Shown here: positions 1-42,635 of the stretch, one piece after another
Position numbering within the stretch: the stretch's first letter is position 1
How the letters are laid out: each line of letters begins with the position of its first letter
NCBI GenBank assembly: GCA_973895155.1
Contig: OZ316895.1
Span: 19,358,803-19,422,802 of the forward strand
DNA from: Marsupella aquatica
Taxonomy: Eukaryota > Plantae > Marchantiophyta
Reading direction: 5' to 3'
DNA: 64,000 bases
Position numbers and translations under genes: made by a program
The notes under the pieces: generated by a model
Told to the model about the DNA's origin: nothing
The model's input: only the letters and a program-made list of their open reading frames with translations
The model's database searches: none

Positions 1-7
1 TGCAAAT

Positions 8-544
8 GTGCATTGTTGTTTCCTCCCGCTTGGTGAGGAGGAGAAGATGGTTCGAGGGTTCTTTGGCCATGGAGGGCTTGTTGACAAGCTATGTACCTCA
101 CAGACCGATTTCTTGATTGCAAATACGCGGAAACAGGCCGTGGAGCACTTCAGTGACTATGCTGGCTTGATCGAGCATTTCGCTGAAACCGTGCATTTCA
201 TCTCTACTCGGTGGGTAGAGTGCTCCATTCTTGCCAACAAGCAGTTGGATCCAGGAGAGTTCTTGTTGCATCCGAGTAGTGATCATGGTCTAGAAGATTC
301 GCCCGAGGATGATGATGGTGAGGCCTACCCTCCCACCTTGTCTAAATGTGACCTGTCACCCACTGAACTTCAGATTGCTATGTTTGATTACAAGGAAAGT
401 TGTGCAGCCGAGGTGGAGGCTCAGAGGCTACAGGCCGGTGAAGCTATTGTGCGGAAGAATTGGAATGCCAGCCAAAGGCGTGCTTCGTACAAGAAGAGGA
501 AAGTGGACAAGGAGTACTACTGGTCTGGAGAAGGGACTCCTTAA
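8..544 (+). CDS. BRCT-like domain protein, 3' portion (probable transposon cargo)
   Basis: GGLVDKLCTSQTDFLIA...VHFISTRWVECSILANKQLDPGEFLL matches the BRCT pattern (GG, THLI-like strand, WxxxC helix). The 5' part lies outside the window. Confidence 0.55.
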   Translation: MHCCFLPLGEEEKMVRGFFGHGGLVDKLCTSQTDFLIANTRKQAVEHFSDYAGLIEHFAETVHFISTRWVECSILANKQLDPGEFLLHPSSDHGLEDSPEDDDGEAYPPTLSKCDLSPTELQIAMFDYKESCAAEVEAQRLQAGEAIVRKNWNASQRRASYKKRKVDKEYYWSGEGTP

Positions 545-1193
545 TCAACATCAGTCTGGAGGGAGGGTGTAGAGGGATGACCATGACTCATGTAGGCTAC
601 ATTTGCAGTAGAAAGGATAGTACAGCTATTGTGTATCTCTATTTGGTCTATGTGCAGCAATAAACACATCCATGAGTGCTATTTGTCGCAACAATTGTGT
701 GGTTTGAATGTTGTATCTTTTTCCTGTGATTAACGTCGAGGAAAATTTAGTACGTTGACTGAACCGTCGTATCTAGTTATTAACGTCGTTCTACTTGAGG
801 TAATATATTTTCGTTGCGCCATCATCGTTAAGAACGTCGTTTTCACCGTGTTACGACGTATAGAAGGACGTTAATAAACCCTTATAACGTCGGCTGATGG
901 TTCGGTACACGACGTTAACTACCATTACGGTGAATTGGCGTAGCTATAAACGACGTTAGAGAATTTGGTATCGACGTAAATTGTTTTGGACGACGTTAAT
1001 GATAGTTATCCCTTGTAGCAAAAGGCCGAGGGATCATGTCCATAAATGTATGGTTATTACTTGTTTCTTTACCAAGTGATTAACAAGCCCATCCCACTCT
1101 ACAAATTGACAGATGCCTAGGCCATGAAATATGTCTGTTTATATGCGAACCGTGACAACAGTCAATACAAATGGGGATAGTGAGTCTATCATG

Positions 1194-4100
1194 TCAATCC
1201 TCCTCGTCTACAATAGCTGATGGCATGAAGCCCTTCCTGCGGCGTGGAAAGATGGGAATCACAATGGACCATCCTCCCATGCTGTGCATCGGAACCATAA
1301 TGCATTGATCCACTTGGCTAGGAAAAACTATAGTGTCACTAAACTCAGTCCCGCTTGGTGCAACACGGGTCGTGTCCACACGATAAAATCCACACTCATC
1401 CTTCACCATGGTAGCTCTTGCTGGAGGTGACATGATGGACTTGTGCCACCTCACCTCTAACACCGTGGTGGTAAACGAGCCAAAATTAACATCCAAAATA
1501 TCCAAGACAATGCCACAATAAGGAACCTCAACATCACCTACATCGGTCACCATATATACTCCAGAGTTACAAGTACTCTTCTTCATATGGTCCGTCCTCC
1601 AAGTCCGAAAGTGGTGCCCTGACTCATACATGTGAGTATGACTCATAGCCCACATCGAAGGCCCCCTAATGATGTTATGTACATCAATGGGAATGAATGT
1701 AGGGCCATGCACTGCAAGGAGCCCCTCCATGCGCTCCAAGGCCCATATGCGAAATGATGCATGAACACGGTCTTGTGCTGCCCCTATCCGCTGCTGCTCC
1801 ACCCATGCCTTGCAAGTATTGGGTCACATATACATTAGATCCCAATATGTGCCAACCACCTTGAATGTACATTTCAAATCTAAGTAGGACTCAACATGAA
1901 GGATTACGTCCCTACCTATACAACTCTCTCCAATCTGACATCTCGGTGCGGTTCTCCAACACATAATTGTGGATCTATCGGTGAAAAATGTCATCATGTA
2001 ATGATCGCTTCTTTGATGCGCCCATCACTCGCAACCCACCATTATCATCATCTTGTGCCTCTTCCCAAGCTGTGGGAGCTTGTTTGTCCAAACTCCCTAT
2101 CACCCCGCTTGAGTAGAACAGGCACTCCGATATAATATACCCTGTTGCCATACTTCCCGCTGGTCGAGCGGGTTTGGTGCACCCAAGACTTTAGCACTTT
2201 CATGAACCGCTCTACCCAATACATCCACCGCGCATGCACTGGACCAGCAATGGCTACCTCATCCACCAGATGACATAGCAAATGCAATTGCATGTCAAAA
2301 ATACATGGGGGAAACACCTTCTCCATATTGCACATAACACGGGCAGACCGTTCCCTCATCTCGGGAATCTCACTCTCCTTTATTTCCTTGGCGCATACCC
2401 ACCTGTAAGGGGTACTCAAGATTTTGTCAAATTATTAGTATGATAAACATATACAATGATCATATCATAAATATATGCCAACAAGACTATGCTAACCTGA
2501 AAATGGAGCACAACTCATATACTGTATGTCGGAGTAGGCGTCGCTCTCTAGAATCATCACAACAACGCAAGACAGCAGGTAACACATGCTGAATCAACTT
2601 GTGATAATCGTGAGACTTCAAGCCGATTGGGGGTATGTGGTCTTCCCTTGTAGTGCACCCACGGAAGCCGGCTCCGTAATGGCTAGGGAATTTCATTTCA
2701 CATATCATCCCGTTCATCTCCTTCAAAATCTGTTTTGGCAAAACCCAAGGAGCAGGTGGCTTCTCCCCATCTCGAGTTATCCAACAACTCTTGACCACTC
2801 CAACCTGCTTTGCATCCTCTCGGACCCCACGAGTATCATTCATCCCATAAATGTGCTTCACCAGGTTCTTGGCAACATTTACTTCAATATGCATGGGGTC
2901 CAACAACCATCGGATGTGGAGCCTCTACAAGATGAAGAACCAGGTTGTGCTAGTGAGAAACTCATAAATAGAATACTACAAGTCACTAACTTAAAATAGG
3001 TCCAATCTGATTTTACTTACCCTCCAATAAGGCAAGTCCCACAAAGCTGAGTGACGATTGACACCATAGTGCTTAGGTTGAAGTAACTTTGCCTCCACTT
3101 TCTCCGCCATTTGAATTTGACCCTCAGCTGAAGGCCCATTGGGACATGGCCTAAACTCAGTCTCAGCCCAATGTGTGGTGTTATGTCACAATATATTGTC
3201 CATTGGCAAACGAACCCTACTGCCCTCATATGTGGTTTTGTGCAGACGCTTGGAGTATCTCCCATGCAACTCAGGACCACATGAAGGGCAAGCTGAATAA
3301 CCGGCCACTTTCAAGCCAGATATTGTGCCCATACCTGTCAATGACACTTAAAACATTCAGGCCAAAATCCATTGTCACATGCAATAGAACCATGCACAAT
3401 GTATGTCTCAATTATTTCTATGACTGAGAATTACCTGGACCATCCATGGTGCAATGGGTGATCATTGCTCTCATATTAAATGTCCTCCCATTATCCGGTG
3501 TACGAGTCACATCTGTGGTCACTGCCCCAAACTCCCATAGCTTCTGCAACTCTTCATAAGCTGGAGCCAAACAAATGTCTGGATTTTTATAGGCCTGAGG
3601 ACCCGGAATGATAGCAAGGAGGAGAACATGACCCTTCTTCATCGCCAACCATGGAGGGATATTTTTATTGAGCAAAAGAACTGGCCATATGGACTTAGGC
3701 TTCCGTCGTTGCTTGTATGGGTTTACCCCATCTATTGCTAACCCCAATCGAATGTTCCTTGGCTCCCTAGAAAAATCCGGCCAAGTGCTGTCGATGTGCT
3801 TCCATGTTGGACTATCGTGGTGATACCACATAATCCCTGGTGGAGATTTGTTCTCAGCATGCCATGTTTGAAGTGCTGATAAATGTTTCCGTCGATAAAG
3901 ATGCTGTAGTCGGGGTGTGATCGGGAAATACCTGAAGACCTGCCATAAACAGTGTTACAAGCATCACTTCGACGTTAAATCAAAGTTAATTACGTCTCAC
4001 ACAACATAAATACACCTGTACAATGTAACATACGATGTAAAGTTTCTTAGCGATGTTAGTAACGTTGGCTACTTCAGTTTATGTCTTAATTAACAATGTA

Positions 4101-6623
4101 AATATATGTGTACCATGTAGTAGACGACGTAAAAACTAACAGGTGATTTGGAGACGTAAGTTACATCTTTAGAAAGGACGTACGTGTGCGTACATCAGAA
4201 ATGACGAGGAAAATGGGCAAAAATACGTTCTAACAAACGTAACACCACCAGGAGGAGGAGGACATCACCTTCTCTGGGATCTTTTTGCCGATGGTATTCG
4301 GTCGGTACCGTGGAAGCTTACATTGTGCCTCTGGGCACTCTATATGCTCAGAGTATGTCCCTTTGTACAGGATGCAACCACTTGGACACATGTGGATAGT
4401 CTCTAAAGCCAATCCAATTGAGGTTAACAACTTCTTAGCTTCCCTCACACACCCAGGGAGAGTGTTTGGTTGGGGCAATAGTTTTTGGTGGAATAGTTGG
4501 AATAGTGCATCTGTATGGACGTCTGAAGTGTTGAAAACTCCCTGCAAATTCAACATCAACAAAGTGGCACCCAACCTGCATTTGTGAAACCAGGGATTTG
4601 TATGCAATTAGTTTGAGGTATGACATTGGGTGTGGTAAGTAATGGTCGAAACATTGGGTGTGGTAAGTCATGGTCGACACATGATACTATTCAATCATGA
4701 GACTTACCGTGATGATGGAGAATCCAGGAAGAGTGGAGTTCTGGCTTCCATTTCCAACTGGTCCCAATCTTCCTGGTCTACTTCCATGGTAGGCCTCTCG
4801 CCCCGAGGTGCATGTGGTCCAAAGTGAACGTCCCAAGGTGGGCAAAAGCTTCCTCTTCAAGAATGGGTGCATCCCCCTCATCTCCATTGTCCTCATCAAA
4901 GTCTCCATCATATGCATCATGGTACTCCTCATGGTCACTATCCCCCTCAACATCTTCCTCATCATAAAAGTGCAGAGTGGCCCGTAGGTGAAAGTCACGC
5001 TCTGACATCATCATCATGGATGGGTGAGGTGTAGGGGTAATGTATGCACCATCCTACAATTGTTTAATACAATATTATAATCAAACAAATAATAAAATAT
5101 GATTTAATGCAATATGCAACAATGGGTCCATATATTCTGAATGTATCATGTCCATCCTCAATGCCAATCATAATCTACAAAAATCTCTTCCCTTGCTCAA
5201 ATGGTGCGGCTAGCATGGGTCAAGATGTAATGAGTACAAGTCTGTGGCAAACGAGGGTGGGTCTGGTCATGGTACTCGTGCCACTCAGCGTTTGGCCTAA
5301 AACCTAAACGCCGACAACCCACAGTGCTATTGATGTAACCTGCCAAGTTTCCAGTGCGGGGTGGATAACCATCCATCTGAGCATACCTAGGGTCTAGCTT
5401 GATAGACATGCCATATCGACCAAAGGTCGGACATTGTCGAGACAAGATGCGTCATCGCTGTGCAGAATACTTTGGCCCATAGAATGGAAAGAGCTGAGGC
5501 AAGTCCTCGGGCTGACAACCATCAAGGACCACAATATCTACAAGTGCAAATAATCCTAATCCTACATTGGGGCCCAATGTGGAGGGAAGGAGGACCCAAG
5601 GGCAGCCCCAGACTATGATAGGTTCCCTGATTGGAAGGTCCAATGGGAGCCCAAATTGGGTAGGAAATGAGTCCTTTATGATGTCCAAGGCTCTCCCACG
5701 TAACTCTCTCGGTTCCCGGGCACTAGATGCATCAAGAAAAGGGCAACGGGGTGGCCTCATCCTAGGCGGACGAGACTCCAACGACCGTGGTCTAGTACTG
5801 ACCACTACTCCCCTCTCAATAGGGTGCACCCATGCCACCCTCACCCTATCAAATACACGGTCTATTGCCCGTAAGGTGGCATCTAGTGCCGATGGGGGGA
5901 CCAGTGCAGAGAGCGCTCGATGTGCAACCTCTCTCATGCAGTCCTTAGGGGGAGACCGTACAATAAGAATCTGTTCCACATGTATGCAACAAAATTTCAA
6001 AAAGCGAGAAACATGAACATTGCTCAAGAAGCCAACCTACCCCAACCTAGTAAAAGTTAAAGTTACTCAAAATGGTTGTGCAAAAGGATAAAACTTACCT
6101 CTGGTGTCGGTGGAACATAACAATCGTGGATCCCTAAGTGGCTAACGATGGTAGTGCTCTCGTGAGATACAACGCCCTTGCATCGTCTACAAGGGCAAGG
6201 CATCTTGCGGACTGGTCCAATACCATGAAGAGCAGCCATGGCCGCTCCAAACCCCTCCTCCGCTGGCGAAGGTGAGTTGTATGCCTGGGGCTCACGTGAT
6301 CGCCGGCGACGGTGTGACCGATGATGGTGGCTCCTCTCTCTCCTTCCGTCCTCATGACTGGGACGGTGATGACGTCGAGATCCACTAGTCGTCCTCCGAG
6401 GCAATGACTAACGACCCCTGCTCTCTGGTGAATAATCCCTCCTATCCAGTGAGTCATCCCTCCACCTATCCGGCGTATAGTCCCTCCTCCTAACCAGTGA
6501 ATGATCCCTCCTCCTATCCGGCGAATAGTCTCTACCCCTATCACGATGCCGGTATCTGGAGCCAAGACTCGTATCCCCATCATCTCTCTCATCAGACAGA
6601 GAGTCCGATGCATAGATCACCAT
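1194..6623 (-). pseudogene. CACTA transposase (Transpos_assoc Zn finger + Transposase_21 + DUF4218 + DUF4216 type), multi-exon, with stops and frameshifts
   Basis: Motifs CPCRRC..SHL (~6130-6210); IHMCPSGCILY; RYFPITPRL; DSPTWKHID..EPRNIRLGLAIDGVNP; LDPMHIEVNV; GLKSHDYH; HLLCHLVDEVAIAGPVHARWMYWVERFMKVLK; NSGV..YCGIV..PSQVDQ. GT-AG introns link the pieces. Confidence 0.9.
5160..5970 (-). pseudogene. SET-domain (lysine methyltransferase-like) exon inside transposase intron 1
   Basis: ORFs 5452-6027 and 5197-5445 share one frame. Reading through the two TGA stops gives GLGLFALVDI..FPFYGP..DGYPPRTGNLAGYINS..PNAEW..ILTHASRTI*AREEIFVDYDW, all hallmark SET motifs in order. Confidence 0.8.
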
Positions 6624-7074
6624 GCCCTGCAACAAATTGAACTGTCTTTGATTAATGCGTAGGGAAGGATCCAAACCCTAAACCTACCACACAAACCCTA
6701 ACCCTAAAGTACAATGCCATACAGTATGTTACAAGGCCTTAACGTCGTTTTTCGAAGCAACCCTAACATTTAACATCGTCAATGGACCCGCAAACAATGA
6801 CCTTTAAAACACAAAGGACGATGTTTATCTAGATTAACGTTGTTAAGTATGATGTGTTATGTACGTCATTTCACCTAACGACATCTGTTACGACGTAAAA
6901 TCAGGAAAACGGCGGATCCGCAAGGTTAGGCATCCCCGGTCATTTCCTTTGGGAAACATCGAGGGAGTATCGAGGGAGTGTTTGAATGTGACTCACATTC
7001 AACATTCCCCACCTCTAGTCCTTACCTCTCCTTGCCTCCTCTACCTCACATAATCGCTCACAGAATAGTCTGCC

Positions 7075-9190
7075 ATGTCGTATCCAGGCTATCTTCCCTG
7101 TAGTGTGAACTTTGATGCACTGAAGGTGGGTTTGGAGGATCCAGAGGAGTTGGAGAAGGTGCATCGAGCCCTACGTTCGACACATTCACTAGTTCAAGCA
7201 TTCAACCACAGCTGGCAATTCATGGGAGGACAAGGAACAAAGGAGTCCAGGTTTATAGAATACCTGGAGAGTATTGAGGCCAACACTCCTGCCGACGAGG
7301 AGGGGGCCAAGATTGAGGAGGGGGCCGCGATTGAAGTGCCTGAATCCGTGCCCGAGCTTGATGGGGCATCGATTGATATGCTGCCTTCATTCCCGAGTCT
7401 ACCAGACGATGGTTGGGATGATCCTGCCTTCACTGGGATTCAACTAGATTCTCAGGCAGCAGCTCGAACTCCTATCAAGAGTCAAGTGACAATCCCACAT
7501 GAGAGATACAGGCCAGAAGATGATAGGAGGGACCATCGGCAACATAGGAGGAGGAGGAGGCAATCTCGTTCTTCGTCAAACAGCAGCACTGAAAGGAGAA
7601 GGCGAAAGGGGAAAGGATCCAATGACCACAATGCAGGCACTTCTAGCAAGAGACATAGGGGAGATCGACATACAGGAGCAGAGAGGAGAGAAGACCACTC
7701 ACGATCATTTCCTCCAGAGCGGCGACGTCCTTCTCAGCAAGCTGCAGCTGCTTCTGCCAACAGGGAGCACCTTCCCACCATCACCCTTGCCGCTTTTGAT
7801 GCTAGGCCGGACGTCATGGATAAGAAAGCACTCACGAACAGAGTGCAGACGTGCGTAGCTAAACACTATCCCGGTTGGACTACTTGGAAGGAGCTTGTGC
7901 ATAACCAGAAGAAGTTCCAATTGCTCCTGAATGATGTGCAGGCTGGATTCAGAAATGGGCGAGAGATTGACTACCGCCACATTAGGAAGAAGATCGTGAA
8001 TCACCTAGCTGATCGGCATTTCAGGTGGAGAGCCAAGGTCCAAAAACTGAGATGCTTGAGGACAAGGGATTACAAGAAACCTGATGGGATGAGTGAAGAG
8101 GACTTCAAATTGATTGTCTCCGAATTGGAAGCAGCCCCAGACACCCCAGTTGGCAAGCGAGTGCATATGGGAGACAAGGCCACTGCTGTTCGAAAAGCGA
8201 GTGGCAAGAAGGTGACTAATTTTTGGGGACAGGGAGGATGGGGAGGATTTCTTGCAACCTATGTAAGTGCAGTGACTCACTCTATACTCATTGAAGTCTG
8301 CATTCTGTGGTTGTGTGCTGCTGCGGTGAAATCCTGTGCTTTACATCGTTTTTTAGTATTAACGTCATCTTGGCCGCACATTACCTTCCCTCTTACGATG
8401 TTTTCTTAGACGTACCTTGCCTCTAACTATGTTAGCACTATATTAACGTCGTCCTGTCAACGTTAATACTATGGAATCACCCTGAATGTCTTAATGGACG
8501 ACGTATGTATTAGTAACGTCGTATGATGATAGGTAAATCACCCTGAACGACGTAACTTCCCTTTGCTGCAGAAGCGGAAGTATGGCCGAGATGTTGAGCC
8601 GAGTGAGCAGGAGTGGCTATACTCTAAGCGATATGGCCCGGCAGCCCTATGGGCAAAGCTTGACTCTGTTCCGGAAGACCACCCGGTAAGTGTGCTAGCT
8701 TGTTCAGTACCATTCCATAGACCTAGACTAAAACTGTGTCATGCAAACCTAGACTAAAATTGTATCTTGTGCACAGGTGGATTGGACTGCACCAGAGGGT
8801 TTAGTAGCACGACCCATTGAGGAGGATGAGGAGCCCAACACTGTAGCCCTGGAGGAGGGTACCTAGGAGGAGGACCCAGTACCTTGCGGTCAGCAGGGCT
8901 CCACTTCTCGTGACCTTTTCCCTGCACTAGAGACTCATAGGGCCAGAGGACAAGGAAGGGAGAGACAGAGGGAGGAGGGAGATAGAGATAGAGATAGAGA
9001 TAGGGAGAGATAGAGATAGAGAGAGGAGAAGGAGGAGTGGTGAGAGGCGGTCCACTAGGGTAACACATAGCACCAGGCAGATAGTGCCAAAACCTAGAGG
9101 CAAGGCTCCACCCTCGGCTGCACCGGAACCAGAAGGCAGTAGCAGTGCCTCAAAGCAGGATGCCCAGCAGTATCAGTTGCGTCGGTGACG
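7075..9190 (+). CDS. CACTA second ORF (TnpA/Ptta-like accessory protein, spliced; 3' end degraded)
   Basis: 444-aa ORF with Arg/Ser-rich and W-containing helical regions (TTWKEL, KPDGMSEEDF, WGQGGW). Donors near 8262 and 8686, acceptors near 8571 and 8776. Divergent from the transposase. Family assignment is inferred from position. Confidence 0.55.
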
Positions 9191-10075
9191 AGGCGGAGGA
9201 TCGAGACGTGATAGGCCCCATTCTCAACGACATTAGGTTGTAGGTATTTCAGTAGCAGGAGGTCCTCCATGCATTATGTACATATTTTTTGCCATTTTGA
9301 TTCAGGCCACCCATTTGTGGTGGCACCTCATTCCGGGTTACAATATGTCAAAACACATGGTTATATTGTGTGTGAGCTGAACCCTAACAAGGACCCCACC
9401 CAGACAGTGCAATGTGTAATAGGATGTATGTACTCCCGTATACGTCCTCCTTTATAAGACCTTTAACCACCACAGTACATCGTTGAGCCCTACATAAGCC
9501 AACGTACGTCGCACAACAAGAGCACGATATATCGTCCCCTACTATGTCAACTTACCCAAACGTCTCAAAAGAGGTCATAATATACCGGCCACGGACAACG
9601 CTAAAATAATACGACGTTTAGTGCATTGCACATTACGACGTACTAGACGTGGTTAATGTTTCATTACGTAGCCTGACACGACGTTTATGGGTAAACTTAC
9701 ACACGAGCATTGGCCATATTTTACGTAGCCTAACACGTTGAAAAATCATATACCTCCTATTGTACGACGTTAAGAACAATGTTTTGGACGTGGTAAAGAG
9801 CGTCTCCCCAAACATGGTAATTAACGTCGCTCTATTAATGTCGTGAATGAGGTCTTTCCTCCTCCGGCCATATACGTCGTGATTAACGTCTTCTAAAAGT
9901 CCGTTAATCAGCCGTAAAATGTAGTTGTGTACACTCTAACACTACCTAGAATGGTGTGACACAATGCATGATTGGATCTGATTTGGACATCAAGCAAAAA
10001 ACATGCACATGTGCAACCGAGTCCTTGTTGTCCTGCAAACATTGTCACACAGCTACAAATAGCGTTGCTTGCTTG

Positions 10076-21432: not shown

Positions 21433-22019
21433 TTTCACTATAATTCATCTTTGCCTTTTGCGCTTGCCCTCACAACTGAATGTGTTTGGTCTTTTGAGTG
21501 GTTGTTGGTCATTGCCCTGGATTGGGTCCTGTAGGTTACTCCCTTGTTTTATTGAGGTTGACTTTCTCTTAAACCACAACTACTTGTATAAGAGCTAAGG
21601 GTTACCAGTAACTTTCATGCATTATACAATGCACACGGTTCCAAGAACGGAAAAGCTCACTTTTGATGGTGAGCACACTACTCACCAGGGCAGGAATGAA
21701 CATAAGAGGGAATGCGGCCCTTTTATATTGTCAGCTGTGGGTGAAGTGCTTTCTTCAAGAAAACAATAATAAATATACAAAACCAGAACTCGCTAAAGTC
21801 TTTTACATTTCCAGCTCACACGTAAAGCAGACTCGTTGTACCACAGAGAGCACGAGAGGCGCTAAGAGAACCCTCTCGAAAGACAATAGCCGTTGCGGGG
21901 GCAACCACCTCACCGGTCTGGGGACCCGACGAACTCCATGACCTACAAGAAGTGACCAACTGAACTCACGTCCATTTGGAGAACTACGAAACAGTGGTGG
22001 ACAAAGATGCTGGATGGAC

Positions 22020-23510
22020 TCGACCATCTTACCTTCTGCGGACGGTCCCCCCCACCCCAGCGTTTCTGTCCTTGCTCTCTTCCTTTGACACCACCGTGAT
22101 GCGGGTCTTTGGTCACCTCATCGGTCCTGGAGCCCTTGATGGAGAGGATGGTTCTTTTGCGGCTAGGCAGACGTCTCTGCCCCCATCGGGAGGTGGTTTG
22201 GGGGTGTCCTCGGCTGTGGTTGTTGCTCCTTGTGCGTTTCTTGGCAGCTGGGCGCAGGTGGCCCCCGCCTTGGCGTCACGTTTCATTGTGGACCTTCGGC
22301 CTATCCTCTCTGACTCGGTCATGGGAGTGGAGAACGGAGCTCTCCCTTTTCAGATCCAGCTTCGTCATGCCCGGTCCTTATTACCGGAGGATGTGCAGAG
22401 CGTGGTCCCTGCTTTTGAGGGAGTTATTTTGGACAGTCCCGACCGAGTTCAACAGGTGATCTCTGATCGCATGCACCGATTCACCCTTTCTAGCATGCTT
22501 TCCGACGCACCCTCTGACTTGGTTCGAGCGCGTCTTTTATCCGGTTCGGGCGTTGGTTCGGGGGCTTGGTTATCTGTGAGCCCATTGTGGGCCCCCTTTT
22601 GTATGAGTTCTTTTGTCTTCACCACTTCCATGCGCCTCCGTCTTGGTCTTCCCCACCCATGCCTCCTTGGGCAACCCACATGTGTTTGTGGAGCGCCCTT
22701 GGATAGGGGGGAATCCATATCCTACGATGTGGTCATGGTAGTGAGCGGACGGCGACACACGATGACATCCGAGATGTGGTAGCCGCCATCGCTCGTGATT
22801 CCGGGTATCATGTTATGATGGAGCAACGACATGTGTTACCACCCCGGGATGGAGTACCGGACAGGCGTCGGGCCGATTTGGTTTTCTCTCGCGCTGGTGT
22901 TCGTGCCCTTGGGGATGTGGTTGTTGCTGACCCCACTAGTGGAGCCAATTTGGCGTCCGCTGCCCACATCCCAGGTCATGCTGCCACGAGGGCTGCTCGC
23001 CTCAAGGAGGAGGCTTATGCTACGCGTTACCCAGGGGACCTTTTCTACCCGTTTGCCGTGGAGGTCTTTGGAGCGTTGCACCCGACTTTTGACCAGTTCT
23101 TGCGCTCCTGTGCGGTTCATTATGTCGAGCGGCGGCCTTATCCACCAGTCTCTGTTATCACATCCTTTTTTAGACAGAGGGTGTCCATTGCACTTCAGCG
23201 TGCACAGGCCTTCACTATCCTTCGTAGAGGCGAGGCGGTTGGAGTCCGGGCATCTAGTCGGATTCCATTGCTTGACCCCCCTATGCAGTTCACGACGGAG
23301 CTTTATCAGGCCCTTCACTGTGCCGTTGGGTAGCCTTTAGGTTTATGTGTCCTTTGTTCTCCTTGGGCTGGGCTTGTGCCTGGTCTTTTTTGTTTTTGCT
23401 CTTTGGCCTTTTGGCCTTTTTTCTTGTTTTCCCTTGATTGGGTTTTTTGGCCTGTGGGATCCTGTCTCCCAGTTCTGCGCCTCCTGCTCTTTGGCAGTTT
23501 GATATATATA
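22020..23510 (+). mobile_element. 5'-truncated non-LTR retrotransposon with restriction-like endonuclease (CRE/R2-type)
   Basis: RPSYLLRTVPP..GGLGV..AFLGSW..LRLGLP; CCHC knuckle CVCG..H..RC across a frameshift near 22710; HD..RD; RADLV..GDVVVADP..KEEAY..PFAVEVFG (PD-(D/E)xK). Stop at 23333, then a T-rich 3' UTR. Confidence 0.8.
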
Positions 23511-23775
23511 CTCGATAGAGTTCTATTGTAGTTGAGTGCACTCTAATTAGAGTACTCTTCTACTGTACATAGAGAGGCAGTTTGACGATGAAGAAGATGG
23601 TTTGGTGTTCAGGTCTTGCCGAGTTGTCCTTTCCATAAGGCTTCACAGATGTTTTAAGGTCAGGTCCTGTAGATCTTTTAGAATTTCCAAGAAGAGGAGT
23701 TGGGGCACACATTCTTTAGAGTAATGCGGTGTATTTGCCAAAGCGAGCAAGGAGGTAGGGCACAGTTAGACGGGG

Positions 23776-26700
23776 ATGGCACCTAGTGGCCATCTGCTGC
23801 AACTTTTGCTTCCGAGCGTCAAGGCGATCAGAGTCGTAGGGACGACGACAAGGTCGCTCTCTTATGTTGTGCGCCCCCGCAGCTACAACAATAATAATTT
23901 CCAGCCAGAGGCAACGCCGCGTTGGCGGGGCATTGTGATGGCGAATGTGACGAAGGCGAATTTTCGGGAAGCTTGCGAGCAGCTGCAGACGCACTTGCAG
24001 GGGGCCGATTTTGTTGCCCTAGATTTTGAGATGACCGGCGTCGAGACGGCTCCGTGGAGAAGGCACTCTGAATTGGACACCTGCGAGACGCGCTATCAGC
24101 ACATCAAGAATTCTGCGGAATCGTTTGCCGTTTGGCAATGTGGAATTTGTCCCTTCCAGTGGGATGAACCTGGACAGAAATTCGTTGCTTACCCGTGAGT
24201 GTTTCTTGTTCCTTTCTCACATCGGGGAAAGATTCTTCCAGGACTCCAGGATTTGAGTAGTGAATGAGTGAGTGAATACAAATGAAAGAATGAATTGACG
24301 AATCAGTGAATGAAAGAGTGATAAAGCAGTGAATGAAAGAATGGAGGGAATGACAACATGGATGCATGAATTAGAAGGAATGAATTAGTGTATGAAAGAA
24401 TGAACGACTGAGTGACTGAATGGATAAAATCAGTGGATTACTTTTTATGTCTAGCCGCTTTTGGCATCTCTTAAGGTACATGACCTCCCATCCCCGTGCT
24501 CTATTTGAGTACTTTCAATTTTCTTTGTAGCTGATGATTATCTGTGCAAAAATTAGGGACACTGGAGCCCTTTGTACACTGCAATGCAAATTAACTTGTT
24601 CCTTTGTCAATAAGGACAATCAACTTCCATTTTAATGTTTTACTGACTGAGGTGTTTTTCACTTTGTTTGCGCTATGTTGGTAGACCCTTGTGGAATTCT
24701 CACCCTTGACGTGTTTGCTATTTGTACTTTTTCCTTTGCTGTTTGTTTCTGCTTGCTCTTTGGGTTCTTCCCTAAGTCGTTGCTTCGCCCTTGGTCCTCA
24801 AATCACTGATCACCAACTTTGACAATCTAACCTTATTTGGCTTGTTATATGGAATTTGTTTGGAAGTTTCTATGGGAGTGGTCCATAGTAAAACCCTTTT
24901 CTAGAAAGAGGATTTACGTTATGTTCGGATATTGATATGATTGCTTGGGAACACTGAAGAGGAATAATGCGTTTTCGTATACAATTGCGCAGACACAACT
25001 TCTACGTATTTCCACGCAACGAGTTACCCGTCGATATGACCTCTCGTAGTTATTTCTGCCAAACGACATCTCTGGAGTTTCTAGCAAAGCATCACTTTGA
25101 TTTTAATGCCACGGTTTATAATGGTAAGGCGAGTAGTTTCATATGACTAACTTTGCATTTTCTTTGTGTCATTTTCTAGGGTTCAAGACGGACTGGCGAG
25201 TAACTGAGAGGAAAGTTTTATATATCTTTGATGCGTTCCATTTCTTGACGATGAGCTGACCGTAATTATGTTTTGCTTTCAGGAATTTCATATTTATCAG
25301 TGGAGCAAGAAAAAATTGCAAGAGCTAAACTTGGGCTGACAGTGGAAGCCAGGATTCTGAAACACAAATATGTAGAGAGTGAGTCAGAGATTCCCCTTAC
25401 TAGAACAGCTGACGTTGTCTTCGCAGAGAGGGTAAGAGTTCAACTGGGACAGTGGCGGGATGGCCTCATGAGAAATAAATTGCAATGGCAGGTCACAGCC
25501 AAGGGAGTAAGAGGCAGCTTGAGCTCCCAGACAACCTCAATTGAACCTCCTGGCTTTGGAGTTTCTGGCATTCAAAGGGCTACCCAGGCTATAATTCCTG
25601 CTTTGGGGGAAGTTACTAGTGATGAAAGTTCAACCGTTCTCCGACCCTCTTATTATGTGGACATATTCGGTAATAATCAAGCGAAGCTGGTCAAGCAAGT
25701 GAGAGAGCTGATCTTGTCTTCCAGTATGTATTTCTGTACAATTTTAGAGGCTGTAGTGGAAACTGTGAAGCCTTGACCAATTTCGACTCACTATGGACAA
25801 ACTTTAGAAACATGTCCGGAGTGTCAAGATGCTTGTAGAGTACCCTCTAGATGTTATAATACTTATTCTCGTTAAGACAGCGCTGGATGAAGTTGCTTGT
25901 CATGACGATTGTCCGACTTAACAATCTAGATATCTTTTCGCAATATCCGTTTTTGCTTATGTTTTCTGCTCTTGGTACCTCTCAGATCTTATATCGATGA
26001 ATTTATATTTACCTCCATATTCTCAAGCATTGTTTGGCGTAGGTTATAAGGAAGCATTTTCCGGACCTTGTTCCTGTTGTGATGGCCAATCTTAGCAATG
26101 TGGAACGCCAGCAAGTGCGAATCATATTTACTTCTTCCACCGAAGACAAAGCAAATCTTCTGGTCCGTTTCCTTCCGTGCTGAAAGTGTCGTTTAAGAAA
26201 ACGCATACTTCCTGAGATGATTAGCCTTACCTGGCATCTATGTTCGTCAATTGCAGGAAGAATTGGACTTGGAGGAGTTGAGAGGCCTGGAGACTGTCCT
26301 CTCTAATGCTGTGGGGTTCCGTAAAATCATTGATGCGGTCAAAGCTTCTGGGAAACCGCTTGTTGGACACAATTGCTTACTTGGTATGGATATCGCATAA
26401 TCAGAGCCTCGTTCTGTAAGGCTACAACGTACACAATTTTTTCTTCCAGTGAGTCTTACTTTCATTTTGTTTTTGTCTCTGACAATGTCACATACGTAAA
26501 GAAACTAACGCATTCTGCAGGGTCATGATCATTTCTCATATTTGATATTTTGCTTTGCAGACTTGGCTCACCTGCATGATAAATTTGTTGGGCCCTTGCC
26601 TTCAAGCGTGAAGGGGTTTTCATCGTCTATGCTCAATTACTTTCCTTGTATCCTTGACACTAAGTACCTGCTGAAAACAGAGCCTACCCTGCGAGATGCA

Positions 26701-28097
26701 AATATAAACAGAAGTACCTCACTAGCAATTGTTTATCAAGAACTCTGTCATGGCTTCTCGGACAAATCGGCAATTCCGGGGAGATTCTATCATGGAAAAC
26801 CCAAAATTATTGGCAAGCCTATGTCGCGAGTAAAGTTGGAAATTGCAAGTGAACTCCAGAGGTTAGTTGTTTCATAACCAGGCTATGGCAATACTTAATC
26901 TCTCTTGGATTTCCCAAAGATGCTTGTGGGTGCTCCGTTTAATGCTCAGTCATGACAATCTTCTAGCTCCGCATTTGTTAATTTTGGTGAACCTATGTGT
27001 GCAGGTACTCTGGTGGACTGGATACAGGCTTAAAACATGAAGCTGGTTTTGATGCTTACATGACAGGTGCCGTCTTTGCTCAAATATGCCATTTGTTACG
27101 TGTTGATATCGGTACAATACGCCAACTCGCACACACAGCAGGTGGTACATCCATAGGTTTTGCAAGCTATGCGAATTTGATGATGTTACAAACCTTCCGA
27201 GGACAGGCTGCATTGGACCTGACCACAGGAAGTGAGGCAGTCGGGATCAAAGCTCCACGCGGACCGACAATACCTCCCTTCCGTTTGGCAGAAAGAGATA
27301 ATGTAGCGCTTTTCTGGGGACCACTCCCTGCACGTGGCCTGGAGGTATATTTGCGGAAAATTGTGCAGAACATCTTTGCCAAAGAAAGACGAATGGCAAC
27401 CATTGATATTTACCCTGTGGACGGAAGCTCTGCATTTGTAGAGTTTAGGAATTCTGCGATTCTGGACGATTTTTTCAAGGCTGTTGGAGGTTTAGTCGTC
27501 AGCAAGAGCGCAAGTTTCGGTGATGGCATAGAAAATGAATTCCCATTAAAAGCTGCGAGATTCGAGGCTTATGAGCGGATTTGCAGGTCTCCCCTGTCAA
27601 CTCCGTTACTTGGAACGGCAGCAGATTTGCTAGAGGTAAATCAGGTTGGGGGTGACTCTCTTGCTCGAATCGATGGCAGTCACGTTCCATCCGGAAAAGT
27701 GGAAAAGTGGCCAAACTCTGCAATTGGGGGTCAGGTAGCAACTGAAGGTCCAAATGCAGCCTTGGATACTGGGTCTTGTGAGGAAGCGATAGCTACCCCT
27801 TTGGAGGAAGAGATTAGTGGACAGACAGACAGCCAAGAGACTAGTCGGCAAATCCTGGAACCCACTCTAATCACCGAGTGCACAACTTCTGGTGAAGGCT
27901 CTTATTTGGGTAGTAGCTTTGTAGAGGCACCCATGAAAACAGACATGATCAGTAAAGGCAAGGACTGTTCCGATGAGAACATTAGATTTAGGAAGGGCAA
28001 GAGGCACGGTTCTGATGAGGATTATAATAACATTAGGACCCCAAAAAGGCCTAAATCAGGTCTTGGTACTGACGATAGTGGAGGGTCCAATCTGTGA
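23776..28097 (+). CDS. CAF1-family poly(A)-specific ribonuclease (PARN-like), 7 coding exons
   Basis: DEDDh motifs ALDFEMTG, VGHNCLLDL, LDTKYL, HEAGFDAYMTG. Approximate exons 23776-24194, 24993-25123, 25283-25697, 26043-26162, 26257-26382, 26561-26860, 27005-28097 with GT-AG borders. Confidence 0.9.
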
Positions 28098-28975: not shown

Positions 28976-31900
28976 TTACAAAAACCTTTTTAGCCATATA
29001 CCCACATTCAAGAAACTTTCAAACTCTGATTGAGGCCTGCGTCCAAATAATGCACACAGAACGTCTGATTAAAATCAAGTCAACACGACTCTTTAAGCTG
29101 ACGATAGATAAGACCTTGAGGAAGATCTCCCTTTCTTTCAGCAGTTTTACACGGATACTCTTATTACTGATCGAAGGCCTAATTCAAATAAGTTGTCTAT
29201 GTTTCACAACGAGTAATCTCCCGCTTTGTTTACTTGAAATGAAAAATAAAAAACTTATACTGGGGTACCAGGTAAAGACCATATGAACGACAATGAAAGT
29301 CTGTAGCATCCTGAACTCATAAACCTTTCAAACTCAACCACATCACGGAACAGACGACCCATCAGAACTGCTAGACAAACTACCAAAACCGAAACAGAAA
29401 TATTCTGGAGAAAAGTGTGACTTGTGGCTTACAATGGACACATTCAACTGGTACACAAGGTTATCTGGGTCTAAAGCGGGGTTACCTGTCGATAGAATGG
29501 ACATCGTCTGGGAAAAGAATGACCTTCACTTCGAGACCACGAGCCCGTAATGCTTGCACATACTGACAACCAAAGCGATATCAGAAAACGATACAAAGAT
29601 CTGACATTGAAAAAGGAGTCACACAAAACCATAGAATACTATCACATGCCAAGCAAATCAACACAAGACGCGACCTCTATCATTACCTGAAATCCGTTAG
29701 ACACGGGAACTCTCCTATCTTGAGCTCCCAACAAGAATAGCGTAGGCACCTTCACCTGCTCCACCAGCACGAGAAGTCGTTGAAAATTTCTCACAACAAG
29801 ATAAGATCGGCGGTTACAACAAGATGGCCTATATAAAGTATCATGCTGCATGGATCTCAACGCAGATGTAGTAACCAACCTTAGATAAATGTGCGACAGG
29901 TGACGCTTTGTAAAACATGGTAAGATCAGTGACAGAAGGAGCCTCAGAATATGTGGATAAACCTTCCTTTCCAAAAGTTTCCACATAGCACCAATCGGGT
30001 ATGTCAGTGATGCCCACCATTGACGAAAGATTGCAGACAGGATTTCTTAGGACAGCAGTGACAAATGTCTCTGGAGCCTGCAAACGTCAATCCAGCTCTT
30101 TGTTACATATTGTCCACATTGACCTTAACTTGGGTAACCAAGCTGATAAATTTTCACTTTCCTAAATAACACAACCATCAGTACACTTGCACTTTTCTTG
30201 AGTGTACCTAAATTCACTTTCTTGAGTATGTTACCTAAATGAATACACGACACAAGATTATCAGTTAATAGACGTGACTGCCAATGTAAAAAATTCTGAT
30301 TACCTACGGAGAGAGAAAGCAAACGTTCAGAAAGGGGGTCTCGCCTGTCCAATCAAGTGAGATGTAAGAAAACCACCATGAGAGCCACCAATAACAGCAA
30401 TTTTGTGCCGCTCAGCAAGCCCATCCGAAATTACTTTCTCCACGGCAACAAGAACATCTGATACATCCTATTCGAGAAAACGCAGAAAGAATATTCACAT
30501 TGTACCAGTGAGCACAAGTTTTCTGTCGATAAGAGACGCTAGCACTATCTTTTACAACATACCATTATAGCAATATTTGTACAAGAACTTGTTCCCACTG
30601 ATGAAAAGTTCCACAAGTATCTCGAGACCTCTGGTAGATATACGTTATAATTCCTTTCCATCGGCTTTCACATGGGATACTGATAGGATAATTTAGGATC
30701 ATAGCACAATTGAGAGCTTTAAAGTTAAAGACTACAAATGAGCATGGGTAACTTGAAGCGGCCGATTCTTCATGTGAGCACTTCACAAAATGAAAGTAAA
30801 TAATGATGAACTACAGTGTTTATAAAACAGAAGGTATGAACTAGAAGTTAATCAGCTTCTAGTTGCCATGAATGATTAACTTGTACCTGGCGGCCCACAT
30901 GACCTGGAAGAGATTGTAGAGCTTCTTCGCCAAAACCCAGAGAACCTCTGCTACAAAGCAATGTAAGTTAGCTTTGTCGAGAAAGAACCAACGGCTTCCA
31001 AGAAAGATGCTTGACACTACTTCCAGTAGTTTGCATAGTATTCAAGCTAGACCACTCCGTGAAAGCACGTTTTATTTACGGTATGGCTAACTGAGTGGTA
31101 CCTCTTTGTTAAAGGAAGATCGTACCTGTAGTTCACATGAAGCAGGCTGAAGCCCAAGGCTGATAAGAAGGCATACGTCCTTGAAAAGCTAGTTTGGCTT
31201 ACAGAATGCGGTCCACCATGGAGAACCACGACAAGAGGATAAATTTCAGGTTTCTTCGCGCCTCCTGGTTGTTGTTTGAAGGGAGATGGCTTTGGAGAGA
31301 CAAAGATGGCTTCAAATGGTTGCTTTCCACCTGTGGGATCAAACCGTAACGAAACTGATTAATAGCACTCAATCTCCAGAAGACTTTGTCCTGCATAAGG
31401 ATTTGAAGACAGAGAGTGGATCCAAATACTTGTTTCAGGGTGAATTAATATGCCAGGGAATTCATAGTTATCTTCTCCCTGGTCCGAGCATTCATCCAAC
31501 GTTTCCACACGCAATACGTCACATGTAGCTCATGATTTCAGCACTTGTTCCGACTTTCCTTGCTGATAGAAGTGAAGGAATAAAAAAATCCATGCTATCG
31601 TACCCTCAGAATCAACCTTCAGCTGGTCAGAATTTGAAACTGGTACTTTCAATACGGCATAAGTCGTAGATGAGAAAGCTGCCTCCACCTGCCAAAATGC
31701 ATTCCAATTCATCTTTGATTTAGTGGATGACAGTAAGCACGAAACCAGAAACTGAGAGTATGCGGAGACTTCCCATCTTGTTTAACAAACCCTTCCATTA
31801 TTATGCGACAGGCAACTCACCTACGTAGGTCAAAATGGACAACCATGAGGTATATTGAGGACTGAAGGACTCACCTTCTGATGATACTTGAGGGAAGGAA

Positions 31901-34900
31901 CAGCAATATCAGACCAACTCCATGACTTCTCTGCATTGTATAGGTTGGTCGCTGGAAAGCTACCTAATTTCAAGCTTGGAGGATTGACTGGGGAGCTGCT
32001 CACTGCAGTATTCATTCCAGCAAGGGGGAAACTCATTAGGTCCCACACAAAAACAAATTGTAACCCTCACTGTACGGTATCCTTGTCGTACTGGAAAATC
32101 TCTGAATAGTAGCTGATGGACCTTAAGTTCTGGGTGCAGCCGTCCTTAAGTAATCTCCTGATTCTCATGCCTGGGCCGTAAGACTAGGTGGATAAGTTGT
32201 CAGCCCACATACCTGCTACGACAAGATCATCTTGCACTCCCAGCAGGGACCAGGAAGCATTGGTAGCAGGTGTTATCCTTGTAACTCTGCCACTGCACAA
32301 CCGCAACTGCATTTAGCCCCTGGTATATGGGCGTGGCTAGCCAACTTCTGAATTAATGTGAGTATAAGAATCAACATACCTTTCAATATCGACACCCAAA
32401 ATGACCTGTGAGCTTCTCCAGTGAGATGACAGCAACAATGTTGCGCCATCCGATAGCCAAGGGTGGGCAATTAGAGTAGGCACGTAAAGGCCCGGGAAGC
32501 CTTCTGGGTCAGGTAGATTCACAACAGGAACCTGAAACACACTGCATGCTTTAATATTGAACAAGAATTGGTCTCGATACGACTGTAAGGGTGTCCAGGC
32601 AACAAGAAAACGTGCTGAGCTTACGTTTGTAAAGCGGATTGTTCAATAAAAAGTGAGCATCATCATCATGAAGCAAACTCGGCATAAGATTGCTTCATAA
32701 AGTTTGGACTATCAGACATCCAAATTGCATAGCTTGCGTATCTAACATGAATAAATATGCTTTCGTTCCACTTCACTAATGTAAAAACACATAAAGCGGG
32801 ACTGACCACGTCTTTCATGGGGAGCTGTGACGTGGGAACTCCTCCTGCCGGCCAGGAAATGGCGTGCAATGAGTTTGTTGCAGAGTGCGCTCCACTGTCA
32901 ACAGCAGCTTTTGCAGACAAAAATACTAGAAGCTTCCCATCTGGACTGCACATTAAAAATAACGTTATCGCTTAGGCAAGGCGTCGTGCTGAAAAATGAA
33001 TTTCTAACCAGGTTTCCATAATTTTTGTTGAGTCCTCCTACATCCGCTTCCGGATGACCATGCAGGTTCCTCCAACGCGCTACTACATTTTTAAAGCAGG
33101 TACTGTATTTAACAAATTAGAGCAACGATCATTCCAATCAAAGCGTATCATAGTGACCTGAAACGTGGTGTAAGGGCGCTGCTTATTTCCCCTGTAAGCT
33201 TCACAGGAGCTGGAGTAGGTTGAGACTCATCCCTGCACGTAAAGCAAATTTCCCTCATGATGAGTTTTTATGACGACTTCCCTATTTTGGGTTCCTTGGT
33301 ACTACTTAAATAATGAATTTGTATCATCCAGACGAAGTTGAAGCTCGGATGGACCGAGCCCGTGAACTATGCAAAAACCCCATTGGACCGTAACACCTAC
33401 AGCTTCACTCGTTGACACCCTTCTCCTTTCCAATTTTATAAACAGAAATTGTCCACCGTATATCTCCCTTCATATCCAGCGATATCGGCGGTGCTTGGAC
33501 TTGTTAAAAGCAGCTCGGAAAGATCGTTCCAACGGGTCTAATATCTCTCGATTTCATGAAGAACTGAGAGACCTATGAACTTATGAAGATGAGTCGATCA
33601 CTCACTGTCCGCAATTCGTGCTCTCAAAAGTTTTTGAGCAGCTAACTTCGACATTTTGTATCTCCCTCGTATCCAATGTAATCGGCTGTTTTTGGAAAGA
33701 TCTTTCTAATGAGCCTAATGTCGTCAAATTTCATCGAGAATTGCAAGACCTGCAAATCTCCAAAGGTGACTGTTCGTTTTCTTATCACATTTCACTCATT
33801 AGTGTAACATATGCTATATGAGCAGAAAATAGGCTTTCGCTGCAGTCCATCTCTGCAGTCTATCAGAGCGTCTTGGCAACCATGGAGGTCCATTCGGGCT
33901 TCAATTTCCATTCAGACGGGCCATAATTTTTACAGGCTTTCACATCGGCCAGACTTCTCAAAACAATAATGAAAACACTTCCGGGCTGACTGTGTAGCTC
34001 ATTTGGGAGATACTGACATTATTTTACACAAATACCCATCTTTGATATTCAAACTAGTCGTATATCCATTTCGGAACTTGTCCAGCAAAATGAGTGTCCA
34101 GAGAGTATGCAGGATTGACCTGGTACCAGACGGTGCTTCAACTGCATAGAGGGCACAGGGCCTGTTGTAACAATATTTCATTCCCAGCTTCCTTGTGGTG
34201 CTAAAGTTTGAGGCATAGGATGTCCAACCCACAAATACCAAATACTGCTCTCCTTCACCGTCAGGGGGAGGTGGTGCCCACACGACTTGGCCGACACTGA
34301 CATCTTTTGGAATCCCTTCAACAACCTGCACACCACCACTGCAAACAGGGCTGTTTAAGTACAGGGATAGTCAGTCGAAAACTAGCGAGATTTCATATAA
34401 TATTGAAAAGATTGACAAATCAATCTGTGCTATCAGACACTGTAAGAGAATCAGCTGTGAGCAGCAGTACCAAATCTTGCTCCCACAAACCCTTCTACAA
34501 AATTCCAACTACCTCATCTCTGACTGCTTTCCAGTAGTTATCTTCAAAATGTCTGGCCATACCTTCCCAAACTAGCCACAAATAAAACCGGCCGCCTCTT
34601 GCCAGAGTAGGATTCACCCCAATCTTCTAGCCAATCTCCTTGCCCTTTCCAAGTCCCTGCATCTACTTCACCCTCTGACTTGCTACTCTGCCCTGTCGAG
34701 AAGAGAGACTGGCCAAACAATGGGCGAGACGGAAGTGGTTCCTCTGCAACATAAGCTATATGTTCTTCATCGTGGCTCCAGGACACACCTTCAAACCTGG
34801 AAAGGAACATCAGAGCACAACTTCTCAGCCCCTAGTACAGCACAATGCGTCGATCCATTAGATCCTAGATACAACGTTGCGTCACACTTATTGTAGAATC

Positions 34901-35634
34901 AATCTTGCTCGTCTTTAAGGACGGTAAACAAGTCACATACCAGCCGTCGGCATATACGGAACCATGGACAGAAGATGGAACATGTAGGTCCTTCAGGAGC
35001 TGTCCAGGACCCCAGATTTCAAGCTTCACGGCACATGCACCATCCTTGACAATTGGGTCTGCTTTCCGGACTATCAAAAGTTTTGTGCCCGATGGAGAGG
35101 GAACAATCAGTAATGCTCCACTTAATTCGAATGGAAATGGTGACCAGTGATAATCGGCCGGATTACTGGCTACGTCTGGTATGTATACAGTAGAAATGAA
35201 AGTCCGCTTGGCATTTGCATGAAGGTTGATTTGGCTCATGGCTACCACAACATCCACGCCTCCACTCCCTGCATTCCACAGAGAGATACTCAGACCTTGT
35301 CAGATCACAGATTGATTCGAAACGTTGAAAGCTCTTCATTGAGTGCCCTATCAATATCGGGTTGTAAGGATCTTTTCCATGAAATGCGGAGCTGCGTTAA
35401 TGAGAAAATCAGAATGATGTTTGAAGCAGTCATCCCAATTTCATAGATCACGGATCTCTATTCTTTAGAAATTGGCAAAAAACTGCGCTAACCTTTCCGA
35501 GATGAGCTCGTCCATGCCTTGTCAATGTTAGGGATAGAATAAAATGCCTGCAGCAATTCAGCCTCTTTCCCTTCGAGTACTTCGCTCTTGGTTCCCACCC
35601 CAGACGTCGCACTCTTCTCAGTTGACTGATCCAT
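28976..35634 (-). CDS. AARE: Acylamino-acid-releasing enzyme (S9C peptidase), many exons
   Basis: LHGGPHS, VNYRGSLGFGEEALQSL, GGSHGGF nucleophile (~30370-30390), RNPVCNL, GAQDRRVP, DVHSIDRPQSEFESFLN. N-terminal propeller with DWGE and YCYNRPCALY. Confidence 0.93.
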
Positions 35635-39306: not shown

Positions 39307-39437
39307 GATTGCCGGCATAGACACCGGGCCGGGGTCGTGCTAAGTCGGAATCCAAAAATCTTAACGGATTTTTGCGGGGACTTAGTGCTTCAACGTGCCC
39401 GATGGGTTGACTGCGGGCAGATTCGGTCGCTGGGGAC

Positions 39438-42400: not shown

Positions 42401-42635
42401 TACGCCTAGTCAGGACAAGCTTAAGGAGATCAAAGAATGGGAGCGTCCATCCAATGTAAGGCAAGTTAGAGCCTTCTTAGGATTTACGGGGTTCTATCGG
42501 AGATACATGAAAGACTATGCGAGGATCGCGAGGCCCCTCAATGCGCTAATGTTGAAAAACAAAGTGTTTGTGTGGACACAAGATTGCGAGTTAGCATTCC
42601 TAGAACTTAAGCGGTTAATGATAACGCCGCCGGTG
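39438..42635 (+). pseudogene. gag-protease-RT (gypsy), frameshifted
   Basis: ORFs 39438-40367, 40274-40525, 40870-41229, 41199-41519, 41520-41732 and 41739-42653 form a broken polyprotein. Confidence 0.9.

Follow-up and report, generated by a model that had tools for sequence, protein, structure and literature searches.

A liverwort CACTA element with a predicted splice choice between a SET-domain exon and the transposase

En/Spm makes two proteins, TnpD and TnpA, by alternative splicing (PMC13547354; bioRxiv 10.64898/2026.08.24.746577). Judged by their transposase domains, maize En/Spm and Arabidopsis ATENSPM3/7 belong to the same superfamily as the liverwort element described here, and in them one transcription unit yields a transposase and an accessory protein, which is also what we predict for this element. 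In En/Spm the accessory protein is the helix-turn-helix protein TnpA, whereas here it would be a SET protein, with a coding finger exon as the shared piece, and unlike En/Spm the present element has a further divergent gene on the other strand. The initial annotation of this DNA had invoked En/Spm as a parallel; the splicing logic of that comparison carries over, but the second product is a SET protein and not a TnpA.

Several DNA transposons that keep a SET gene have been described, among them HarbingerS, Phytophthora MuDR, and SET-carrying Helitrons (PMC12730594; bioRxiv 10.1101/2025.02.11.637652). These belong to other superfamilies and hosts, and the available text of both sources presents accessory or captured genes and mentions no exon shared with the transposase. 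A closer case is Plavaka PAG2 of red algae, a SET domain in an element of the EnSpm superfamily, as here (bioRxiv 10.1101/2025.02.11.637652). PAG2 is described as an accessory gene in which SET is joined to an N6-adenine DNA methylase domain, whereas Pfam finds SET alone in the family studied here (PF00856 in 32 of 33 members and no other family; no PF01555, the N6-adenine DNA methylase domain, among the 33 members or the longer homologs scanned). Also unlike PAG2, SET here lies inside a transposase intron and the enzyme is of the Transposase_21 type. Membership in both groups was considered and rejected, for Plavaka PAG2 because no PF01555 lies beside SET and for HarbingerS because the transposase is Transposase_21 and not Harbinger-type. 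The domain order of the predicted transposase isoform is that of canonical plant CACTA ORF1 (TAD, Transposase_21, DUF4218, DUF4216; PMC8978399), except that a SET exon with its own stop lies between TAD and Transposase_21 and that Pfam does not detect DUF4216 in the last transposase exon. In a literature search that left Repbase Reports, subscription journals, and supplements outside its scope, we found no paper on a CACTA element with SET in a bryophyte, nor on a finger exon that SET shares. Each half of the arrangement is known by itself, SET genes in transposons on the one hand and splicing of the En/Spm kind on the other, but we came across no published account of both together.

The window (the whole stretch of 64,000 nucleotides from Marsupella aquatica that we analyzed) is plant nuclear DNA with host genes among transposons. 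The host genes encode a CAF1-family (PARN-like) nuclease (23770-28097, plus strand), an acylamino-acid-releasing enzyme (APEH; 29642-35299, minus strand), and a CoA-binding protein (succinyl-CoA ligase alpha-like; 50925-51431, plus strand). Two overlapping open frames at 21964-23333 (plus strand) appear by eye to be the end of a non-LTR reverse transcriptase/endonuclease gene and have no Pfam match of note. Decayed gag-pol frames, also recognized by eye, represent Gypsy-like and Copia-like retrotransposons at 39411-42653 and 58137-63064 (both plus strand). At the left edge, an open frame at 2-544 (plus strand) runs off the window and gives a weak BRCT_2 match (E 0.12).

To the right of this frame lies an EnSpm/CACTA-type element, a decayed copy of a multi-copy family, with an approximate extent of 708 to 9929 and no strand assigned to the element as a whole. 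EnSpm/CACTA elements have terminal inverted repeats of the form 5'-CAC..GTG-3', reading CACTA in flowering plants, and a 3-bp target duplication (general CACTA structure: PMC4158355). The right end of this element, CACAACTAC, reads CAC, while the left end aligned to it is without CAC, and no 3-bp duplication was found at the ends of this decayed copy. With the left end at 708, 16 of 32 terminal nucleotides pair, compared with 5 to 9 for neighboring starts, and contigs of other copies end at 707 and 9929. Clusters of AACGTCG/CGACGTT form subterminal repeats in both orientations at 732-991 and 9612-9823 and are also found inside the element; 3 of the 18 exact matches to this 7-mer fall outside it. 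The internal clusters, at 3970-4130 (transposase intron), 6741-6891 (between both genes), and 8445-8548 (second gene), could be putative binding sites of an element-encoded regulator.

The second gene is a 446-codon open frame (7069-8409, plus strand) that stands head-to-head with the transposase gene and is contained in the multi-copy contigs; further plus-strand open frames continue beyond it to about 9240. It has no Pfam match at E≤1, and a sub-segment gives a weak AsiA match (E 0.07). Its C-terminal segment, viewed by eye, looks similar to TnpA/Ptta-type proteins.

The transposase gene is on the minus strand. In the predicted transposase isoform, the second exon is an acidic exon (4708-5053) with a phase-0 acceptor, and it is followed by exons at 4575-4270, 3939-3435, 3334-3021, 2924-2497, 2402-1916, and 1808-1194, the GT-AG borders of which were read from the sequence. 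Pfam matches to Transposase_21 (PF02992, E 6.6e-36) and DUF4218 (PF13960, E 1.1e-23) place the enzyme in the EnSpm/CACTA superfamily. The EnSpm/CACTA transposase motif as defined in PMC12730594 was also found by eye, with CPSC in the exon that begins at 3334 and HLLCHL in the exon that begins at 2402, directly before WVERF.

Upstream of the acidic exon on the same strand are the two exons with which we are chiefly concerned. The first coding exon (6099-6623, minus strand) is 525 nt long and therefore ends in a phase-0 donor. It consists of low-complexity RD/RS repeats, built of 24-nt units at 6393-6557, followed by a CxCxxC...H finger. Directly 5' of the exon, an acceptor-like TTGCAG at 6627|6626 suggests a possible upstream non-coding exon. 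The finger (6138-6197, minus strand; C143/C145/C148/H162) is a weak match to the transposase-associated domain PF13963 (Transpos_assoc), with an E value of 0.0047 and a score of 17.5 bits, under the cut-off of 27.7. The SET exon (5158-5970, minus strand), a predicted alternative last exon of 270 codons plus stop with a phase-0 acceptor, encodes in order a helical segment, an Arg-rich linker, and a SET domain with a DYDWH end. It is likewise a weak match to Pfam SET (E 7e-4; 20.4 bits, cut-off 22.4). The SET stop is separated from the acceptor of the transposase by an AT-rich stretch (5054-5157, minus strand; 25% GC) with two ATTAAA words, which is the predicted end region of the SET isoform.

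Based on this layout and on the comparisons below, we think it likely that intact copies of the element splice one zinc-finger exon either to the SET exon or past SET to the transposase. A single promoter 5' of 6623 would drive both isoforms. Use of the near acceptor at 5970 would give a finger-SET protein of about 445 amino acids that stops at 5158; use of the far acceptor at 5053 would skip SET and give a transposase of the order finger, acidic exon, Transposase_21, DUF4218.

The splice sites in question had been named in the initial annotation, and all three motifs are present on the minus strand where it placed them: CCAGAG|GTAAGT with last exon base 6099, GAACAG|ATTCTT with exon start 5970, and TTGTAG|GATGGT with exon start 5053. 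As it had also claimed, phase 0 holds for the donor, at 6099|6098, as well as for the acceptors, at 5970 and 5053, each of which opens a coding frame. Nor is there a strong donor 3' of the SET tyrosine motif, where GTs occur only at 5120, 5086, 5070, and 5057 and none is donor-like. In one locus, phases agree by chance 1 time in 3, and intron 1 has two other phase-0 AGs (6094 and 6037); we regard the agreement as above chance because a related locus, L001, has the same layout and because of the pattern of variation among copies. The short intron (5971-6098, minus strand) is 128 nt long with 36% GC and has stops in the exon-1 frame, and its GTAAGT donor is common to both predicted isoforms. Position 6000 is C (minus strand) in all listed covering contigs, which gives a branch-like word, CTGAA. 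The pyrimidine tract of the SET acceptor (7/16) is the weakest among the nine window acceptors scored, the others having 8 to 13.

L001, a JGI contig of 2195 nt, was the 1 locus obtained from 57 pattern matches in a metagenome scan, and its SET is 45% identical to that of the window. Its Ser-rich exon contains the same finger (PF13963 E 4.9e-4, likewise under the gathering score) and closes with PATTE|gtatga, a phase-0 donor that falls at the codon where the window has PPTPE|gtaagt. After an intron of 144 nt, with CTAAT 30 nt 5' of tatcag|, the SET exon opens in phase 0; it contains a single internal TGA and is followed by a stop and an AT-rich stretch. An acidic exon at 1882 has a phase-0 ttcag| acceptor and ends like the acidic exon of the window. 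Both loci thus have the layout of En/Spm type, in which one upstream exon could be joined in frame to either of two exons further downstream. The only significant blastn match between them is a single 176-nt stretch inside SET, which means that general similarity of their DNA does not account for the phases they share. The window and L001 loci descend from one ancestor, and the SET acceptor and its phase, on whose conservation across relatives the initial annotation had staked its reading, are kept in L001 together with the second acceptor and its phase. No related loci were found in viral contigs (0/32 and 0/3) or in genome contigs (0/40).

Contigs of five public runs span the whole element with its introns and include many variants below 90% identity. 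There was no exon-to-exon joint among the best 15 of 62 joints, nor among the 12 listed in a second comparison at a 30% share threshold; the five runs carry no RNA label, and missing exon-exon joints in them say nothing on expression. The contigs are informative about the state of the copy in the window, which has a TAG stop in exon 1 (6410-6408), two TGA codons in the SET exon (5454-5452 and 5199-5197), an acidic exon of 346 nt that is one base short near 4832 and, read in phase 0, runs into a stop at 4780, a stop in the exon that begins at 3334, and a frameshift near 2173. Because exon 1, the SET exon, the acidic exon, and the transposase exons all contain such defects, this copy could make neither a finger-SET protein nor a transposase. 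In other copies, the codon at 5454-5452 is Trp in all or nearly all contig depth, the stop at 5199 is Arg in 49 to 88% of contig depth, there is an extra base at 4832/4833, and there is an indel at 2173/2175. All or nearly all covering contigs also read Gly-Arg after the finger (6122-6124), unlike the copy in the window; this Gly-Arg matches a GR motif that L001 and more distant relatives have. Some contigs of other copies have internal deletions (1859-5378, 2360-5262, 3864-5467, and 4882-5845), in some cases with filler letters, and such copies are consistent with non-autonomous derivatives.

In diverged copies the middle of the short intron differs (joints at 5999/6003-6091/6095), whereas its last ~30 nt are kept, as are the SET exon and exon 1 with its donor. 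Similarly, 5054-5157 has diverged between subfamilies, and the SET end and the acidic exon are kept (joints at 5056/5058-5158). Among the listed variants, which are the best 40 of 185 and hence a best-supported rather than a random subset (3 intronic rows dropped, 2 exon-1 rows set aside), 21 of the 35 in the SET exon are synonymous compared with 10 expected (p 1e-4). The SET exon thus shows purifying selection among copies.

These observations bear on the view that the SET sequence was passively captured as a piece of a gene, or came in as a nested insertion, and that its phase matches by chance. Gene fragments are often captured by CACTA elements (PMC8978399), and in the window the SET exon is flanked by a direct repeat of 10 nt, at 5113-5122 and 5983-5992, for which resampling gave p 0.04, this being one of four such tests. 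We rejected this repeat as a target duplication; it has no counterpart in L001, where no matching direct repeat was found (p 0.52). Inverted repeats bracketing SET are not above chance in either locus (p 0.91 in the window and 0.22 in L001). The nested insertion with its own TIR and TSD that the initial annotation had named as the counter-case was not what we found, there being no TIR pair and a direct repeat that is unmatched. Capture is also contradicted by the synonymous excess among the listed SET variants, by the same position of SET in L001 and in gene models of Riccia sorocarpa, and by the 141 relatives (at the 50%-cluster level) that a profile search with SET returned. We consider this explanation largely refuted and give it hardly any weight.

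Among the relatives, the nearest named ones are from the liverwort Calypogeia fissa, at 47% and 59% identity. Two others, P0057 (Logan, 2141-nt contig) and P0185 (ENA, 1528-nt contig), contain the finger plus a complete SET in one ORF, in the order low-complexity start, finger, linker, and full SET domain. They are 55% identical to each other over 408 amino acids with no break across the finger-linker border. We infer that both are probably uninterrupted ORFs, because other proteins of both sources start in the intron and so were called without splicing. A profile of the window and L001 fingers alone finds P0057 (E 1.2e-3) and P0185 (E 2.6e-5) among 215 sequences, and the reverse finger profile finds L001 (2.3e-6) and not the decayed finger of the window (0.27). 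In Riccia sorocarpa, five gene models, which are predictions, join the finger (degenerate in one) to SET sequence. In a FastTree phylogeny of SET, built from 48 rows and 206 columns without the fragments, the fused ORFs and the Riccia models fall in a sister subclade to the SET of the window (supports 0.93 and 0.99); the finger fusion is absent in 25 of 25 closer SET homologs. Other Cys/His-rich N-termini are present in the distant family members P0082 (Calypogeia fissa), P0119, and P0099, perhaps a sign of additional fusions or of domesticated copies.

If the finger exon served SET only, the transposase would start separately, at or 3' of the acidic exon. Finger-SET fusions were found and no protein was found that joins the finger directly to the acidic exon without SET, in searches that used SET queries only, and there are four Met codons near the start of the acidic exon of the window. 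However, those Met codons are missing at the start of the L001 acidic exon, and a phase-0 acceptor precedes the acidic exon in the window as well as in L001. Moreover, angiosperm CACTA ORF1 begins with the finger domain (PMC8978399), which is why we expect the transposase to use exon 1. Such a division of the gene therefore seems quite improbable to us.

Another arrangement, in which the transposase intron harbors SET as a small gene in its own right, with a separate promoter and ATG and with the finger exon unused, deserves closer attention. The SET exon has an in-frame Met 12 codons in, which is matched in P0001, P0002, P0004, P0005, and P0006, and the L001 subclade has an ATG directly after the AG. 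Arabidopsis En/Spm families are known to switch between spliced and split-gene layouts (PMC13547354). Against this, Met 12 is missing in P0009, P0014, and P0015, the intron upstream is just 128 nt in the window and 144 nt in L001, and finger-SET ORFs exist. The codons 5' of Met 12 look constrained: in a diverged copy with one loose end at 5938, compared by hand, 6 of 10 residues between the SET acceptor and the internal Met are kept, 4 of these 6 through synonymous changes. In 13 of 14 ORFs that run upstream, there is by eye a Gln (a possible CAG) at the inferred border; the ORFs in this count lack independence, and that same Gln helped to place the border. We judge an independent nested gene to be unlikely, though it is the alternative with the most to be said for it.

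A third possibility is that the SET cassette is spliced on to the acidic exon from a donor before the last tyrosine, which would give a finger-SET-transposase fusion. Several Riccia sorocarpa models, again predictions (P0069, P0118, and P0148), as well as P0090, join SET to the acidic exon or the transposase, and a phase-0 GT is present at 5178 in the window, just 5' of the SET terminal tyrosine, and at 1654 in L001. But this GT is part of a Val codon in poor donor context (TTT|GTAGAT and CTT|GTGGCT, respectively), and its use would drop a tyrosine that alignment columns show to be kept in at least 90% of rows. The models join at differing places, as expected for predictions on decayed copies, and no longer relatives (539 to 2000 amino acids) were present among 7991 candidates, which is weak evidence. 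The chance that this is how the gene is spliced appears slight.

Taken together, the layout, the conserved phase-0 sites, selection on SET, the finger-SET ORFs, and the lack of bracketing inverted repeats make alternative last-exon splicing the likely arrangement. The initial annotation's preference for an integrated architecture over passive capture is also upheld, by conservation in L001, purifying selection, the absence of a TIR pair, and finger-SET ORFs in distant relatives. It further saw in the N-terminus common to both isoforms a putative module for targeting or assembly.

What a finger-SET protein would do depends on its SET domain. Structure models of the relatives P0001 and P0185 have the SET fold (Foldseek E 2.4e-7 and 2.6e-7). 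VIA on the SET model gave Z 12.4 to PRC2 (rmsd 2.7, 134 aligned) and Z 12.3 to SET8 (rmsd 2.4, 122 aligned); since the top Z values are tied across SET8, PRC2, COMPASS, and SET7/9, no substrate can be assigned. In SET8, PRC2/EZH2, SET7/9, and PR-domain (PRDM) proteins, the fold, the GxG, and the terminal tyrosine are common with the SET protein here, at about 12 to 23% identity. A PDB search by sequence returned just a weak match, PFL0690c (E 0.12), and Atlas placed the protein in a 50-member, mostly streptophyte SET cluster with a score of 0.97, a recognition under the reliable level. The finger region of the P0185 model has block pLDDT values of 42 to 74, and because these are low we assign no fold to the finger.

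Within the SET domain, the second G of GxG is invariant, and the first G, the Asn, and the terminal Tyr are each kept in at least 90% of rows. The canonical N-H motif of SET enzymes is RFINHS. The His after Asn is found in 0 of 48 rows here, and nearly all have N-S; we therefore do not file the protein under the canonical histone-methyltransferase families (SET1, SET2, SUV39, EZH2), and catalysis is not assured. No pre- or post-SET cysteine clusters are present in the protein. PR domains are also without that His and PRDM9 is active, so the predicted activity of a His-less SET protein is possible. The function we consider most likely for the finger-SET protein is SAM-dependent lysine methylation, exerted in trans on the chromatin of the element family, which would help the element stay active; we hold this proposal with less than even confidence. 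More doubtful still is the fuller scenario, in which a splice switch, in a CACTA lineage long established in bryophytes, attaches the zinc finger of the transposase to a His-less SET methyltransferase, so that one module would deliver either a cutting enzyme or a chromatin writer, the latter methylating histones on the element's own copies or target sites and thereby escaping silencing.

The plant anti-silencing factors VANC and TnpA have been described as DNA-binding regulators. If our reading is correct, the transposase gene of a plant transposon would also supply a lysine methyltransferase, by which the element would itself place chromatin marks, and the choice of splice site would govern how jumping is balanced against chromatin control. 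The SET relatives occur in two liverwort genera, the lineage is probably old, and they constitute a small SET family, amenable to testing, whose active site is unusual. It also follows for bryophyte genomes that "SET domain-containing" models in their annotations, e.g., in that of Riccia sorocarpa, can be transposon products.
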